Virus record (IMG/VR): IMGVR_UViG_2778261056_000004 | Span: 1-42,285 of that record | Strand: one strand, 5' to 3' | Source: a virus | Taxonomy: Duplodnaviria; Heunggongvirae; Uroviricota; Caudoviricetes | Length of the DNA: 42,285 bases | Shown here: piece after piece, positions 12,106 to 36,135 of the stretch | Layout: each line of letters starts with the position of its first letter | Numbering within the stretch: the first letter of the stretch is position 1 | The notes under the pieces: model-generated | What the model was told of the DNA's origin: nothing | The model's input: the letters and a program-made list of their open reading frames with translations, nothing else | Database searches by the model: none | Program-made: the position numbers and the translations under genes

Positions 12106-12394
12106 AGCGCACTCCTCCCAGGCTTTCCGCCACAGACATCATTACATCATCATCCATCGGCAAATCTTCCTGCTCTGGTGGGTTAAGCAGGCTGAAGTCA
12201 CGTGGGGTTAATTCGGTTTCTGTACACAGCATTGAGACAATAAGATGGCTGAGGCGGGAGAAATGGGTATCCAGAAGATCACCTTCAAAATACTGCTTTT
12301 GATAGTAGCGCCCCCATTCCGCCAGCTCACTTGATGACATGCCGGCAAGCATGACGCGCCAGTCCGGTCGCCGGAACTCCCGCGCCAGCTTCAT
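12086..12394 (-). CDS. tail assembly chaperone T-like reading frame (expressed as G-T fusion by -1 frameshift)
   Basis: ORF is in the -1 frame relative to the G-like ORF and is open across the G stop; lambda G/GT arrangement. Confidence 0.5.
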   Translation of the reverse strand: MKLAREFRRPDWRVMLAGMSSSELAEWGRYYQKQYFEGDLLDTHFSRLSHLIVSMLCTETELTPRDFSLLNPPEQEDLPMDDDVMMSVAESLGGVRYGPVSG

Positions 12395-30995: not shown

Positions 30996-31098
30996 GCTAT
31001 TTCTCCATATCAGGCGGCTGCACCCGCCTTTTGATTTGCACATAATTCAGAAAGATTTGCCTCTACCAGCGCCACCAGCATAGTTATCAACGATAATT

Positions 31099-32433: not shown

Positions 32434-33284
32434 CCTCTGAACCCCTCTGGAATCTTGGTATCAACCGGACCGAACTTCATCGGATCGTGTTTCTTTTCAC
32501 CCCAGCTTTCACGCGGTGGACGCCCCTTCTTGTCCCAACGGATCCCGCTTTGCAGATAACCCTCAAACTTTTTCGGGCCAAATAGCGTTTCAGGGCGCAT
32601 GTACTGGTACTGCACGTCATTGCCGTTCCAGTGCTCATGCTTAAGGTCAATCACCAGCTGTAACTCGCCAACGGTGTAACCTTCACGCAAACGAGCACGG
32701 ATGTTTTCCAGAGAAGTTTTTGATTTTTGGTATCGTGAGCCGCTAACCAGGTTCAGATGATTCAGAACCAGGATGGCGTTATCGGTGATCGTCACTTCAA
32801 GGTCTGGTTGCTGCGCAACCGGACAAGAAGGTTTTTTAACTGATGGATCAGTAGTTGTATTTACTGACGGATCCCCCCCAGATTCTGACGGGTGAAAACT
32901 GCCTTTCTCATCGTTTTTTGATGCCTCAGATTTTGACGCGTCGGTTTTTGAGGCATCAGATTTTGATGCGTCAGAATCTGACAGGTGAGAAAAGGCAGCA
33001 GCCTGCAATTTCGCAACATTGAGCTGGTAAACGTTCGATGCATTTCGGTTGCCTTTACGGCGCTGCTGGCGGGTTAACCAACCATCTTTTTCCAGCTGAG
33101 ATATGGCTGTGCGAACCGTGCTCTCACCAGCACCAATCTGGCGCGCGATGGTAGCGATGGAAGGCCAGCTAACCCCTTCATCACTGCTGAAGTCTGCCAG
33201 ACGCGCCATGATGGCAACGCTGGATAGCTTCATGCCAGAAGCGGCACAAGCATCCCAAACGTAACCCGTTAATTTAGTGCTCAT
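32430..33284 (-). CDS. replication initiation protein (O-like; N-terminal HTH, conserved phage C-terminal domain)
   Basis: N-terminal YVWDA...SWPSIATIARQIGAGESTVRTAISQLEKDGWL winged-helix pattern; central acidic DASK repeats; C-terminal LNHLN...YMRPETLFG; RBS AAAGGA. Confidence 0.6.
   Translation of the reverse strand: MSTKLTGYVWDACAASGMKLSSVAIMARLADFSSDEGVSWPSIATIARQIGAGESTVRTAISQLEKDGWLTRQQRRKGNRNASNVYQLNVAKLQAAAFSHLSDSDASKSDASKTDASKSEASKNDEKGSFHPSESGGDPSVNTTTDPSVKKPSCPVAQQPDLEVTITDNAILVLNHLNLVSGSRYQKSKTSLENIRARLREGYTVGELQLVIDLKHEHWNGNDVQYQYMRPETLFGPKKFEGYLQSGIRWDKKGRPPRESWGEKKHDPMKFGPVDTKIPEGFRG
32880..32990. repeat. tandem about 15-bp iteron-like repeats inside the replication initiator gene (candidate origin)
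   Basis: About five imperfect copies of TCAGATTTTGACGCG (plus strand), encoding SDASK repeats; lambda ori iterons also lie within O. Confidence 0.45.
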
Positions 33285-33625: not shown

Positions 33626-34231
33626 TTACTTCTCCATACAAGATTTGTCTGCCACGACGCCCGGAGCTGCACACTCGCGGGCGTCACCTTTTTCCGGCGC
33701 ACAAAACACACGGAAAAGCAGCGTCAAATGTTCCTGCCACTTAGCCATCACCTGATAGCTGTTCTCTTCGATCTGGGCGCGTTCCTGAGCATCAATAACG
33801 CCGTCAGCGGTAGCTTTACGAACGTATTGCGAATGCCTGCCGATCCACTCAACTGACTCCATGAGACGCTGGTTGATATCGCCGTTCTCAATATCTTCAA
33901 CATCAGCCAATGGCACAAACACACCGTTCGAGTGACGTGCAATAGCATTCGCTATGTGGTTTGAACCACCAGCACGCTGAAGCACCATCGCCCAACCGAG
34001 CGGGAAGATCTGATCACCATCGGTACGCAGCCGGTTAAACAGCGCGTTCTCGGTCACACCCAACCACTCAGCAGCTTCGGAATACCCGCCAGGAAGCTCG
34101 GTGATCGTTTTTTTGATTGCGGCCACCAGCCAGGCTGGCTGCTTATCTACTTTCCATTCAGGTTCTATACCCACGGCTAGGTCCTCCCTTCTGTGGTTAT
34201 TTCTGATCGTTAGGCGCTGTATTCTTGCCAT
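33626..34231 (-). CDS. CII/YdaT-like HTH regulator (start uncertain, 34258 or 34231)
   Basis: Internal HTH-like segment ELPGGYSEAAEWLGVTENALFNRLR; position directly downstream of the Cro-like gene. Confidence 0.35.
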   Translation of the reverse strand: MARIQRLTIRNNHRREDLAVGIEPEWKVDKQPAWLVAAIKKTITELPGGYSEAAEWLGVTENALFNRLRTDGDQIFPLGWAMVLQRAGGSNHIANAIARHSNGVFVPLADVEDIENGDINQRLMESVEWIGRHSQYVRKATADGVIDAQERAQIEENSYQVMAKWQEHLTLLFRVFCAPEKGDARECAAPGVVADKSCMEK

Positions 34232-34412
34232 AACGTTCTGGGTTGAATTCCAGTTCACCAGCAGTTCGATACGCAGCTTCAGCAGCTCGTCCTTTAGGGA
34301 TTAAGCGTCCGGGGCGATTACGCCACTGGTAAACGGCCTCACTGGTGATGCCAAAAAATTCGGCAACTTTCTCAGTGCTGCCGAAATGTTGTTCAATCTC
34401 GTCGGTTGTCAT
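34197..34412 (-). CDS. Cro-like HTH repressor
   Basis: 71 aa, HTH EKVAEFFGITSEAVYQWRN; strong RBS TAAGGAGG; divergent from cI. Confidence 0.65.
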   Translation of the reverse strand: MTTDEIEQHFGSTEKVAEFFGITSEAVYQWRNRPGRLIPKGRAAEAAYRTAGELEFNPERYGKNTAPNDQK

Positions 34413-34420
34413 GAAGCCTC

Positions 34421-34505
34421 CTTAGCTAAGTTTGGTTAGATATTAATAACCAATCTAACTTTGGTCAATAAAAACTAAGATTACTTAGTCTTTTTTAAAT
34501 TTGGT
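34421..34505. promoter_or_regulatory. OR-like operator/promoter region between cro-like and cI
   Basis: Palindromes CTTAGCTAAG, CTAAGTTTGGTTAG, ACTAAGATTACTTAGT sharing half-site CTAAG/CTTAG. Confidence 0.45.
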
Positions 34506-34511
34506 GCTTTC

Positions 34512-35138
34512 ATGGAAACAGTTGGTCAGCGCATTAAAGCCCTACGCAGGGTTACAAAAACCTCTCAAAAAGAACTGGGTAAGTTCTGCGGAGTGAGTGA
34601 CGTAGCGGTGGGTTATTGGGAAAAGGATGTGAATATCCCAAACGGAGAATCGCTGGTTAAGCTGGCTAAATTCTTCAATACATCAATAGATTACATTCTT
34701 TACGGCACTGAATTTGAAGGGACCCTCATAACTAAAATGAGGCGTGTGCCCGTGATTTCTTGGGTTCAAGCTGGGCAGTTTACGGAATGTAAGGCCGCTG
34801 ATTTATTCAGTGATGTCGATAAATGGGTTGAAACCTCACTACGTATTGGGGATAGCTCGTTCGCTTTAGAGGTCAAAGGGGATTCAATGACCAATCCAAA
34901 TGGCCTCCCAACAATTCCTGAAGGGGCAACCGTTATTGTCGATCCAGATGCCGAACCCCTTCATGGCAAGATTGTTGTTGCGCGTATTGATGGCACTAAC
35001 GAAGCGACTGTTAAAAAACTGGTCATTGATGGCCCACAAAAATTTTTAGTCCCACTAAATCCTCGCTACCCCAACATCCCGATCAATGGTAACTGCCTCA
35101 TTATTGGAGTAGTTAAAGGCGTTCAATACGAACTCTAA
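34512..35138 (+). CDS. CI-like prophage repressor, LexA-like (HTH plus peptidase S24 autocleavage domain)
   Basis: N-terminal HTH QKELGKFCGVSDVAVGYWE; Ala-Gly site (QAGQF), GDSM Ser and VKKL Lys as in LexA/lambda CI. Confidence 0.85.
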   Translation: METVGQRIKALRRVTKTSQKELGKFCGVSDVAVGYWEKDVNIPNGESLVKLAKFFNTSIDYILYGTEFEGTLITKMRRVPVISWVQAGQFTECKAADLFSDVDKWVETSLRIGDSSFALEVKGDSMTNPNGLPTIPEGATVIVDPDAEPLHGKIVVARIDGTNEATVKKLVIDGPQKFLVPLNPRYPNIPINGNCLIIGVVKGVQYEL

Positions 35139-35159
35139 TCCCTTTCCGCTCTTCCTCTA

Positions 35160-35215
35160 AGCATCAAGCTAAGTTTAGTTTGATGTTTCGCTTGACCAAC
35201 AAACTAAGTTAAGTT
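35160..35215. promoter_or_regulatory. OL-like operator cluster downstream of cI
   Basis: Same CTAAG-containing motifs: AAGCTAAGTTTAGTTTG and AAACTAAGTTAAGTTAG. Confidence 0.35.
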
Positions 35216-35571
35216 AGATTTTTTCTGTCGACACCAAACCACCGCGCCTGATGTGGTTAAAAGCAGGCCAAAGCAATAAGAAGTGATCCCTGTTCTGGCT
35301 GCTCACTTTCCCCTGAGGGTGACAGCCAGCTTTTTAAGGGCACAACGTGAAAGCGCACTCCTTCTCTCTTTCACTGCGGGGGCAGGTTTGTTACCGAAGT
35401 AGTGCGCTTCCAGTTGTGGTAATGCGGCTCTGCGCACGTGACGAGGCCAACAAGTTTTTATTTCAACATTTGAAATGAATACGTTTCTTGAGGTGTAGCG
35501 TCGCCGGTTCTGGCCGGTCCGGCAGGTGGAGGCACCACCGCCACAACAAAATCATTGCTGTGTGTAGTCTT

Positions 35572-35600
35572 TGCCCATCACATCGATGGGCACCTTTTTT
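35572..35600 (+). terminator. rho-independent terminator in the early-left leader
   Basis: GCCCATCACATCGATGGGC hairpin followed by ACCTTTTTTA. Confidence 0.4.
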
Positions 35601-35763
35601 ACACAAGAGACAAGGGCATCACCGGGCGACGGGCTCATTCCCCAATCCACCCGGGCGCTATGGAAATGGACCTCCTACCCATAGCCGAAGCGCAGGTGCC
35701 CTTTTCTGTTGTGTATGGAGAAGTTCCACTGGCGGTGGCAGCCGCCTCACAGAGGGTTAAACC

Positions 35764-36135
35764 ATGAGTAATGACCGCATGACCGTAGTGCCCGATTTCC
35801 TGGGCGAACTGGATGCCGGCGTGTTCATGAACAAGATCGCGGCAGCTTTAAACACTACCGCGCTTGGCGTTCTGAACAACGGTACCAAAGGCAAAGTAGT
35901 CCTCACCTTTGATATTGAGCGTATGGGTAACTCCGTCGAAGAGAAGCGCGTCAAGATCAAGCACAAGCTGAACTACGTCACCCCAACCCCGCGCGGTAAA
36001 GCCTCCGAAGAAGACACCACCGAAACACCAATGTGGGTTAACAAAGGAGGCAAGCTGACCATACTGCAGGAAGATCAGGGGCAGCTGTTCGGGATCAACG
36101 GCGGCGTTGACGGAAAGCTTAAAGCGGCACAGTGA
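35764..36135 (+). CDS. hypothetical early protein (YfdP-like by position and size)
   Basis: 123 aa, first gene of a plus-strand operon matching the yfdP-yfdQ-yfdR order of the E. coli CPS-53 prophage. Confidence 0.45.
   Translation: MSNDRMTVVPDFLGELDAGVFMNKIAAALNTTALGVLNNGTKGKVVLTFDIERMGNSVEEKRVKIKHKLNYVTPTPRGKASEEDTTETPMWVNKGGKLTILQEDQGQLFGINGGVDGKLKAAQ

Follow-up and report, generated by a model that had tools for sequence, protein, structure and literature searches.

A candidate composite small RNA in the early-left leader of an LLS/ST64B/SfV-type phage

What occupies the beginning of the early-left operon of a lambdoid phage in which no N gene is found? This question is raised by the caudoviricete genome IMGVR_UViG_2778261056_000004, the whole 42,285-nucleotide stretch of which was analysed and is called the window below. 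Its interval 35221–35763 forms the early-left (PL) operon leader in a lambdoid phage of the LLS/ST64B/SfV type and lies between a CI-like repressor gene and a yfdP-like gene. No N-like arginine-rich protein was found as the first product of the PL operon, where a yfdP-like protein stands instead, and no N homologue was reported for phage LLS, which is 95% identical (PMC12315714). Given this lack of N, the authors of the LLS genome proposed an RNA element like put of phage HK022 (PMC12315714), and the initial annotation of the window, made from sequence, offered the same idea beside a regulatory leader or a small RNA (sRNA). Here we show that the leader is non-coding, that it contains structures with covariation, that it is homologous to the prophage sRNA STnc100 and to the 3' end of the host sRNA RprA, and that its position between repressor and yfdP is conserved. 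Its core is probably a composite sRNA, and membership of the put family is rejected.

A non-coding leader of exchangeable RNA modules

The initial annotation had described about 540 bp of structured non-coding leader, and all of the features that it named were present, some of them displaced by about 15 nt. The 543-nt leader (35221–35763) folded at −215.9 kcal/mol, compared with −181.5 ± 7.1 kcal/mol for dinucleotide shuffles (z −4.85), and none of 100 shuffles was as good. A first inverted repeat, CTGGCTG (35295–35301) with CAGCCAG (35323–35329), was borne out as a hairpin at 35296–35328. The arms of a second, AAGCGCAC and GTGCGCTT, were also found, but at 35351–35358 and 35402–35409 and not at 35365–35425 where they had been placed. 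The terminator expected near 35572–35600 consisted of a stem at 35572–35592 and a run of six T residues at 35595–35600.

As the annotation had held, the leader contained no convincing N-like open reading frame (ORF): its ORFs had no match in Pfam and were unconserved among 58 unique homologous leaders, and no conserved protein-coding gene appeared in any of these. Open stretches in the two candidate frames ranged from 3 to 462 nt among the 58, the lengths of homologous leaders differed by non-multiples of 3, and no coding sequence over the leader was called by PGAP or by the LLS authors in the LLS record. With no conserved ORF, the leader is non-coding. The comparison across homologues that the annotation had proposed was carried out, and RNA-type compensatory changes were found in the helices of a cloverleaf-like domain and in the 5' untranslated region (5'UTR) domain of yfdP, both described below.

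Escherichia phages LLS and Flotzy share the leader at approximately 95% identity, and in phage Eeyore it was 89% identical from 35238 onward despite a different repressor and different operators. Beyond these phages it was a mosaic, separate stretches of which matched prophages of E. coli Nissle and Klebsiella, Klebsiella Lastavirus phages, and many SfV, mEp460, and Stx2 phages. We read the leader as a series of RNA modules, each exchangeable independently of the rest. At the module borders the motifs CACAAC and GUUGUG recurred (35341–35346, 35413–35418, 35542–35547, 35601–35607, and 35698–35704), where they give mutually exclusive closing helices, and three deletion variants (L151, L165, and L188) resembled joins between such motifs. 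These border motifs may be a switch, or simply joints for the exchange of modules.

The cloverleaf-like domain and the RprA-like tail

The core of the leader begins with a cloverleaf-like, tRNA (transfer RNA)-like domain of 135 nt on the plus strand (35413–35547), which RNAalifold resolved into five helices on an alignment of 22 diverse sequences (A2). The domain is closed by an 8-bp acceptor-like helix, P1 (GUUGUGGU/GCCACAAC), and comprises a D-like arm (P2), an expanded "anticodon" arm (P3) in which a 4-bp helix surrounds a variable insert of about 65 nt with an inner hairpin at 35460–35476, a variable-arm-like hairpin (P5), and a T-like arm (P7; GGUGG-AGGCA-CCACC) whose 3' strand continues directly into the closing helix. 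GGCC at 35446–35449 forms a pseudoknot (P4) with GGCC at 35510–35513, which co-varied as AGCC/GGCU, GACC/GGUC, and GGCA/UGCC. This layout is that of a class II tRNA. Among 27 sequences, 98.3% of the cells were paired, compared with 87.5% in shuffles and 28–54% in shifted registers; both sides had changed in 16 of the 28 cloverleaf pairs, a count reached by 0 of 500 shuffles, and compensatory pairs occurred in all five helices, although the alignment used (A5) was fitted to the model and these counts are biased upward. The domain is not a canonical tRNA: its T-like loop has 5 nt and not 7, the anticodon arm is replaced by the insert of about 65 nt, and ARAGORN detected no tRNA gene, either in the window or among 123 related contexts.

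The covariance model R1, built from the window's family, found one copy in the window, on the plus strand only, at 130.7 bits. R1 also matched the SfV leader at the same position with 53.4 bits, where the Rfam STnc100 model gave 39.5 bits (gathering threshold, 47), and it matched at full length, with 26.4 bits (E 1e-6), the STnc100 downstream of stx2B in phage 933W, which the Rfam model scored at 207.7 bits. These matches indicated that the domain is a divergent relative of STnc100. About 60 of 125 loci with the cloverleaf had a CI-like repressor gene (33–100% identity) upstream on the same strand together with yfdP/yfdQ downstream. Copies were also found beside tRNA genes. In Klebsiella phage ZX1 the module (1513–1641) ends just 5' of a true tRNA-Arg(UCU) gene (1645–1721), and in the phage contigs L130 (3475–5847) and L145 (1912–4766) three cloverleaf copies (55–118 bits) lie amid a same-strand tRNA array (Arg, Tyr, Thr, Ser, and Met). 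Among species-representative genomes, the sequence of the T-like arm occurred mainly in Enterobacteriaceae.

Immediately 3' of the cloverleaf, positions 35548–35600 of the plus strand resemble RprAproc, the last 47 nt of RprA, which accumulates in vivo and represses narP alone (PMC9262595). Single-stranded AAAAUC-AUUGCUGUGUGUAGUCUUU, with its conserved core at 35554–35572, leads into the stem at 35572–35592 (z −5.1), a CC spacer, and six U residues at 35595–35600, so that AUUGCUGUGUGUAGUCUUU, the GC-rich terminator, and the U-run of the RprA 3' domain are all present. In a permissive scan the Rfam RprA model matched 35465–35601 at a sub-threshold 46.5 bits (E 2e-4), and the annotated E. coli rprA was 84% identical to 35554–35603, the similarity being concentrated at the 3' end. 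An alignment of native rprA (L208) with phage copies showed TGCTGTGTGTAGTC to be invariant, and the exact 21-mer TGCTGTGTGTAGTCTTTGCCC occurred in at least 119 IMG/VR contigs, in 27 upstream contexts of which none resembled the native rprA locus. Homologues gathered through the neighbouring module, a route that does not favour the tail, had kept the core GCUGUGUGUAGUCUU, though the terminator hairpin was often unrelated and longer. Retention of this core while the terminator stems were swapped pointed to selection on the single-stranded core. The tail also carries the sequence hallmarks of Hfq-dependent sRNAs, namely a U-rich single strand, a terminator, and a U-run. A spacer of 1–3 nt separated stem and U-run in all 41 scorable leader-type copies and was absent from 5 of 8 copies behind ORFs, a pattern that fits a leaky terminator, in a rough statistic from which 37 unscorable copies are missing.

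Many other phage copies lie directly behind stop codons, retain CCCCUGA, and score 50–55 bits against the Rfam RprA model. Such mini-RprA copies follow unrelated genes at 3454–3547 of L036, 11599–11708 (minus strand) of L021, 7584–7691 of L032, and 6787–6915 of L016; downstream of them lie a GAAAGCGCA...UGCGCUCCC hairpin and then a conserved gene pair, of which one encodes a membrane protein of 49 amino acids (MKPEHLHRLTGRDVL...) and the other a product some 300 amino acids long. L016 additionally contains, at 12230–12318, an above-threshold match to Rfam sRNA-Xcc1 (68.3 bits) that has no connection with the leader. Copies of RprA's active 3' part are widespread in phages, and a search of the accessible literature, with the sequence as text included, returned RprA papers only and no description of a phage-borne RprA-like RNA.

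The reading that we favour, and judge to be rather probable, is that the leader core is a composite sRNA in which a tRNA-derived cloverleaf of the STnc100 family (35413–35547) is fused to an RprAproc-like tail (35548–35600). After derepression, RNA polymerase would start near 35227 and transcribe the modules, and a fraction of the transcripts would end at the terminator at 35592–35600 as structured RNAs some 375 nt long. RNase P or RNase Z may cut this RNA at the tRNA-like domain, or RNase E may do so, and cutting would release an RprAproc mimic of about 50 nt that would bind Hfq and act in trans on host RNAs. The remaining polymerases would read through to produce the yfdP-yfdQ-yfdR mRNA, with its 5'UTR folded as a long helix domain. 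Should the tail work as RprAproc does, induction of the phage would bring a direct change in how the host regulates envelope stress and biofilm.

Several points weigh against this reading. The homologies of the window to RprA and STnc100 are both sub-threshold and rest on partial or reciprocal evidence: the RprA score of 46.5 bits is under the Rfam gathering threshold of 70, and the Rfam STnc100 model (gathering threshold, 47 bits) had no match at E ≤ 10 in window positions 34900–36000. To these are added the upward bias of the covariation counts and the roughness of the spacer statistic noted above. The window copy also lacks the main RprA seed (CCCCUGAG), located around nt 31–45 of RprA (PMC5861431), as well as the rpoS-pairing region; in an alignment with RprA (A6), the 3' strand of the cloverleaf and AAAAUC occupy the position of the seed. 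That its targets are the same as those of RprA cannot be taken for granted, and a search of the phage for a site complementary to the RprA-like seed returned only the seed itself. L151, L165, and L188 have no tail, with yfdP within about 80 nt of the cloverleaf; the tail is dispensable for the leader, since these variants run from the cloverleaf straight to yfdP. Finally, the start site of the leader RNA, its partial termination, its processing, its binding to Hfq, and its action in trans are all predicted from sequence.

A more specific proposal, which we put forward only tentatively and regard as somewhat unlikely, is that a modular "tRNA-sRNA" cassette is carried by temperate enterobacterial phages, in which the cloverleaf is a processing handle for the tRNA-maturation enzymes of the host, releasing a phage-made copy of processed RprA at the onset of the lytic cycle and taking over part of the host RprA regulon. 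Were this so, the phage would take part of a regulon that covers envelope stress, biofilm, RpoS, and the nitrate response. Such an RNA would be a bacterial counterpart to the tRNA-microRNA transcripts of murine gammaherpesvirus 68.

The cloverleaf might instead be the functional unit by itself, as a tRNA mimic that serves tRNA-binding enzymes or anticodon-nuclease defences as decoy or as substrate, or simply as a processing signal, the tail being merely a borrowed terminator. The contiguity of the 8-bp acceptor-like helix with the 5-bp T-like arm, the D-like arm and variable-arm-like hairpin, the canonical T-loops UUCGAUU and GUCGAGU in relatives, and the copies amid true tRNA genes would all suit such a mimic, as would the leaders that have a cloverleaf and no tail and the Lastavirus copies that are followed by a tRNA in place of the tail. 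However, the core GCUGUGUGUAGUCUU was kept even with an unrelated terminator hairpin and also occurred, with no cloverleaf, in many other phage contexts, which a plain terminator would not need; moreover, ARAGORN rejected the domain and its T-like loop is 2 nt short of the canonical 7. We therefore consider a tRNA mimic with an incidental tail unlikely.

Other modules of the leader and its surroundings

The composite sRNA would be preceded by three further modules. A promoter scan placed a PL-like sigma-70 promoter (TTGACC-17-TAGATT, plus strand) at 35192–35220, overlapped by operator repeats at 35167–35187 and 35202–35222; these repeats, assigned to families D2/D7, reproduce operator sequence located between cro and cI (34424–34495). 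The same consensus-type scan, which is weak evidence on this point, found no internal leader promoter for separate transcription of an sRNA. A candidate H-type pseudoknot was read from the sequence at 35238–35269 of the plus strand. In it, CCAC (35239–35242) pairs with GUGG (35253–35256) as S1, and GCCUG (35246–35250) pairs with CAGGC (35264–35268) as S2, joined by the A-rich linker UUAAAAG. The motif recurred directly behind early promoters and operators of other immunity types. Its sole compensatory change was in the variant L050 (GCCGGG/CCCGGC) and the nested fold alone was no better than shuffles; because a single variant shows compensation, we rate the pseudoknot as a candidate only. Membership of the PreQ1-I riboswitches, which have a similar topology, was considered and rejected, as no Rfam match was found at E ≤ 10.

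The second module, T1 (35296–35336, plus strand), is the terminator-like CUGGCUG...CAGCCAG hairpin followed by CUUUUUAA. Its 14-bp hairpin (35296–35328; ΔG −21.6 kcal/mol, z −2.24) was almost unchanged in LLS, Eeyore, and the E. coli EC09 prophage, and it was missed by the terminator scan because its fold does not fit the pattern of an uninterrupted stem with a 3–8-nt loop. At the place of T1, the relatives L133, L175, L183, and L130 have boxB-like hairpins with purine-rich loops ahead of the CACAAC upstream of the cloverleaf, for example GCCGG-GAAAGA-CCGGC and CCUCG-GAAGAGA-CGAGG. The third module is a long variable hairpin (35341–35418, plus strand; ΔG −35.1 kcal/mol, z −3.58) closed by CACAAC (35341–35346) and GUUGUG (35413–35418), which encloses the AAGCGCAC/GTGCGCTT arms. 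In Eeyore, GAGAGCAUUGC...CAGUGCUCUC replaces AAAGCGCACUCC...AGUGCGCUU, a compensatory replacement. Since GUUGUG at 35413–35418 is common to both pairings, the variable hairpin and P1 of the cloverleaf exclude each other. Within the variable-hairpin region the EC09 prophage carries a 330-bp insertion (L003, 3046–3390) that contains a duplicate of the AAAGCGCA hairpin and another GUUGUGAUGAAUUGCAGCC...-type element, its second, like those of the L062 and L183 variants.

As a member of the put family, the element suggested for this leader did not hold up. The put RNAs of the HK022 type come in pairs, with one site close behind PL and another behind PR, and suppress terminators in cis by way of the beta' zinc-binding domain of RNA polymerase. 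Each is conserved, folds over some 70 nt into two stem-loops, and bears the motifs GAACGGCGCG..UAAACCAUGCGUCGG and GGCGGGYUCAGGAWGARCGGCAAU; the leader is without these, and the motifs had no match in the window at up to 3 mismatches. A covariance model (R2) was built from HK022 putL and putR, taken from the genome record, and from HK639 putL as annotated in its record. R2 recovered HK022 putL/putR and HK639 putL at 71–99 bits, these being the same sequences that trained it. It found no match in the leader; its best hit in the window was 9.6 bits (E approximately 1), outside the leader, and it did not match LLS, Eeyore, SfV, or phiNP. No twin of the 5' pseudoknot or of the cloverleaf was found on the PR side or anywhere else in the window. 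A boxA-like YGCTCTTWA had no match in the leader, and boxB-like hairpins were inspected by eye only. We rejected membership of the put family because both motifs and model were negative and there was neither a PR-side twin nor a boxA. The resemblance to HK022 and HK639 is one of setting, that is, a phage without N that has a structured RNA just downstream of PL and upstream of terminators, whereas the window leader shares neither sequence nor structure with put and has a single site.

A functional analogue of put was considered separately. According to this view, the 5' pseudoknot (35238–35269) or the cloverleaf (35413–35547) would bind the elongating RNA polymerase in cis, and the polymerase would resist T1, the RprA-like terminator, and terminators downstream, replacing the absent N. 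Apart from the lack of an N homologue, this would account for two terminator-like hairpins ahead of the first gene, for a 5' element that lies about 11 nt past the predicted start and is seen again behind the early promoters of phages with other immunity types, and for a cloverleaf that varies least of all parts of the leader and lies upstream of yfdP in every case. Nevertheless, the elements have no likeness to HK022 or HK639 put and no second copy in the PR operon, and the covariation of the 5' pseudoknot comes from one variant. The cloverleaf family also occurs in tRNA arrays, beside a Lastavirus integrase gene, and downstream of stx2B, where a cis antiterminator is not expected, and it could not act on T1 because T1 is upstream of it. 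A put analogue is thus decidedly unlikely.

Downstream of the composite core, a structured 5'UTR domain of the yfdP-like gene was identified by covariation at 35596–35719 of the plus strand. Its closing helix of about 22 bp pairs 35596–35620 with 35695–35719 and encloses a conserved hairpin (35622–35654) and a hairpin of variable length (35655–35693; versions of 16–40 nt). Seven of its 42 pairs were compensatory, such as GC↔CG in columns 16/113, AU↔GC in columns 17/112, and GC↔AU in columns 22/107, and the segment 35593–35657 is common to SfV, mEp460, and Stx2 phages. Between this domain and the start codon (35731–35763, plus strand) stand an invariant hairpin, GGCGGU-GGCA-GCCGCC (35731–35746), and a Shine-Dalgarno-like GAGGG. 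Nearly the same small hairpin (GGCGGKKGCAGCCGCC) was seen ahead of the ribosome-binding sites of two different genes, at window positions 31012–31028 (minus strand) and 35731–35747 (plus strand).

This part of the leader is also where a small protein has been annotated, as a "hypothetical protein" over the homologous stretch in some phages. The candidates would be an ORF at 35488–35760 or 35555–35767, the terminal ATGA of one frame overlapping the yfdP start codon, or the 62-amino-acid PHROG 33599, which matched the translated region with E 4.9e-6. That match, however, was split between two frames of the window (35595–35657 and 35689–35757), the candidates start with TTG and read through the terminator, and the central hairpin was swapped wholesale for alternatives of 16–40 nt with compensatory pairing. 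Because the match spans two frames and the covariation is of the RNA type, PHROG 33599 was probably built from spurious ORF calls on the leader, and together with the spread of open-frame and leader lengths, the negative Pfam result, and the lack of gene calls given above, this makes a small protein very improbable.

The attachment site (attP) of a phage often includes the 3' end of a tRNA or small RNA gene, as is the case for ssrA in the LLS relatives (PMC12315714), but that the RprA similarity is a functionless recombination scar, an attP core or DNA from the host rprA locus, is hardly credible and was rejected on sequence context, as the segment lies between repressor and yfdP in about 80 loci and not beside the integrase, 0 of 27 sequence contexts resembled native rprA flanks, compensatory changes set the terminator stems apart from those of native rprA with the single strand kept, and LLS-type phages integrate at ssrA.

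The surrounding genes are those of a lambdoid immunity region, with the CI-like repressor gene at 34512–35138 (plus strand), a Cro-like gene at 34197–34412 (minus strand), and a CII-like gene at 33626–34258 (minus strand). The next plus-strand gene after the leader is the yfdP-like gene (PHROG 204; start codon at 35764), followed by a DUF2303/YfdQ gene and a YfdR-like 5'-nucleotidase gene. Four copies of a repeat with 15-bp spacing (TCRGWTTTTGAYGCG-like) within the O-like replication gene (32911–32985) are probably origin iterons. When the whole window was scanned with Rfam at gathering thresholds, the only match was a group II intron (636–2453, minus strand), whose D1-D4-6 domain (2228–2453) scored 186.6 bits; it carries a reverse-transcriptase-like ORF of 495 amino acids (636–2123, minus strand) and adjoins a large tail-fibre-like ORF (2563–4971).

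Comparison with known RNAs

STnc100 (RF02076) is a prophage sRNA of Salmonella and E. coli (Fels-1 and Stx phages) that overlaps the Hfq-bound EcOnc27/sRNA103 downstream of stx2B and has a structural relative in PasD (PMC12711010; PMC12370729; bioRxiv 10.64898/2026.05.13.724894). It shares with the window domain the 8-bp closing helix, the D-like and variable-arm-like hairpins, a T-like hairpin whose GGAGGCACC loop region is invariant, a linker after the core that is single-stranded and leads to a terminator hairpin, the prophage location, and the reciprocal covariance-model matches. The window copy differs in that it is below Rfam detection, has GUUGUGGU/GCCACAAC as P1 where STnc100 has GCAUGGUG/CACCAUGC, and has GGUGG/CCACC as its T-like arm where STnc100 has CCGGG/CCCGG, both of these differences being compensatory. 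It is also in a PL leader upstream of yfdP, whereas STnc100 is downstream of stx2B in the late region, and the RprA core, which is missing from true STnc100, is present in its linker. In phage 933W (L207, 1778–2037), STnc100 on the plus strand and AsxR on the minus strand are convergent and abut downstream of stx2B, where they share the terminator region.

With RprA (RF00034) the window has in common the 3' core TGCTGTGTGTAGTC followed by a GCCCAUC...GAUGGGC terminator and a U-run. Unlike RprA, it lacks the 5' stem-loop and the seed at nt ~30–70 (CCCCUGAG...AACGAAUU) for rpoS, csgD, hdeD, and narP, lies away from the ydiK-ydiL locus, is preceded by the tRNA-like domain, and has a 2-nt spacer before the U-run. 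Other phage RprA-like copies, among them L036 and L021, keep CCCCUGA, unlike the window copy. AgvB and AsxR of enterohaemorrhagic E. coli prophages likewise belong to a family of modular prophage sRNAs, in which the 3' scaffold is conserved and the 5' part varies (PMC4104026); they mimic target sites and sponge host sRNAs, whereas the window element copies a host sRNA itself, and the Rfam AgvB and AsxR models had no match in the window.

For LLS/ST64B/SfV-type phages, the published and repeated put-like guess is replaced by a concrete anatomy that is testable on LLS in E. coli K-12. Three topics that have been treated apart in the literature, the prophage sRNA STnc100, phage tRNA arrays, and the core-genome regulator RprA, are now linked.

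The nearest precedent for an sRNA from this leader, by analogy, is PreS (LPR1) of phage lambda, an Hfq sRNA that arises in the early-left operon, at its terminator tL2a (bioRxiv 10.1101/2024.10.31.621285). PreS and StxS come from terminators in early-left or late leader transcripts of phages; in both, the 3' end of the sRNA is an intrinsic terminator within an operon, expression belongs to the lytic programme, and function depends on Hfq (bioRxiv 10.1101/2024.10.31.621285; PMC7547250), as would be the case for the predicted sRNA of the window. The sequences themselves are unrelated, and in the window the terminator precedes the first gene and the RNA would bear a tRNA-like domain and a host-sRNA-like seed. 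Among the three options of the initial annotation, the put family was set aside, and the sRNA or regulatory leader was upheld by conservation across immunity types, RNA-type covariation, the terminator-ended RprA-like tail, and the STnc100-like domain. The initial interpretation is in this way partly supported: we take the leader element to be at once a small RNA and a regulatory leader, not a member of the put family, and class it as a variant of the STnc100 and RprA kinds.

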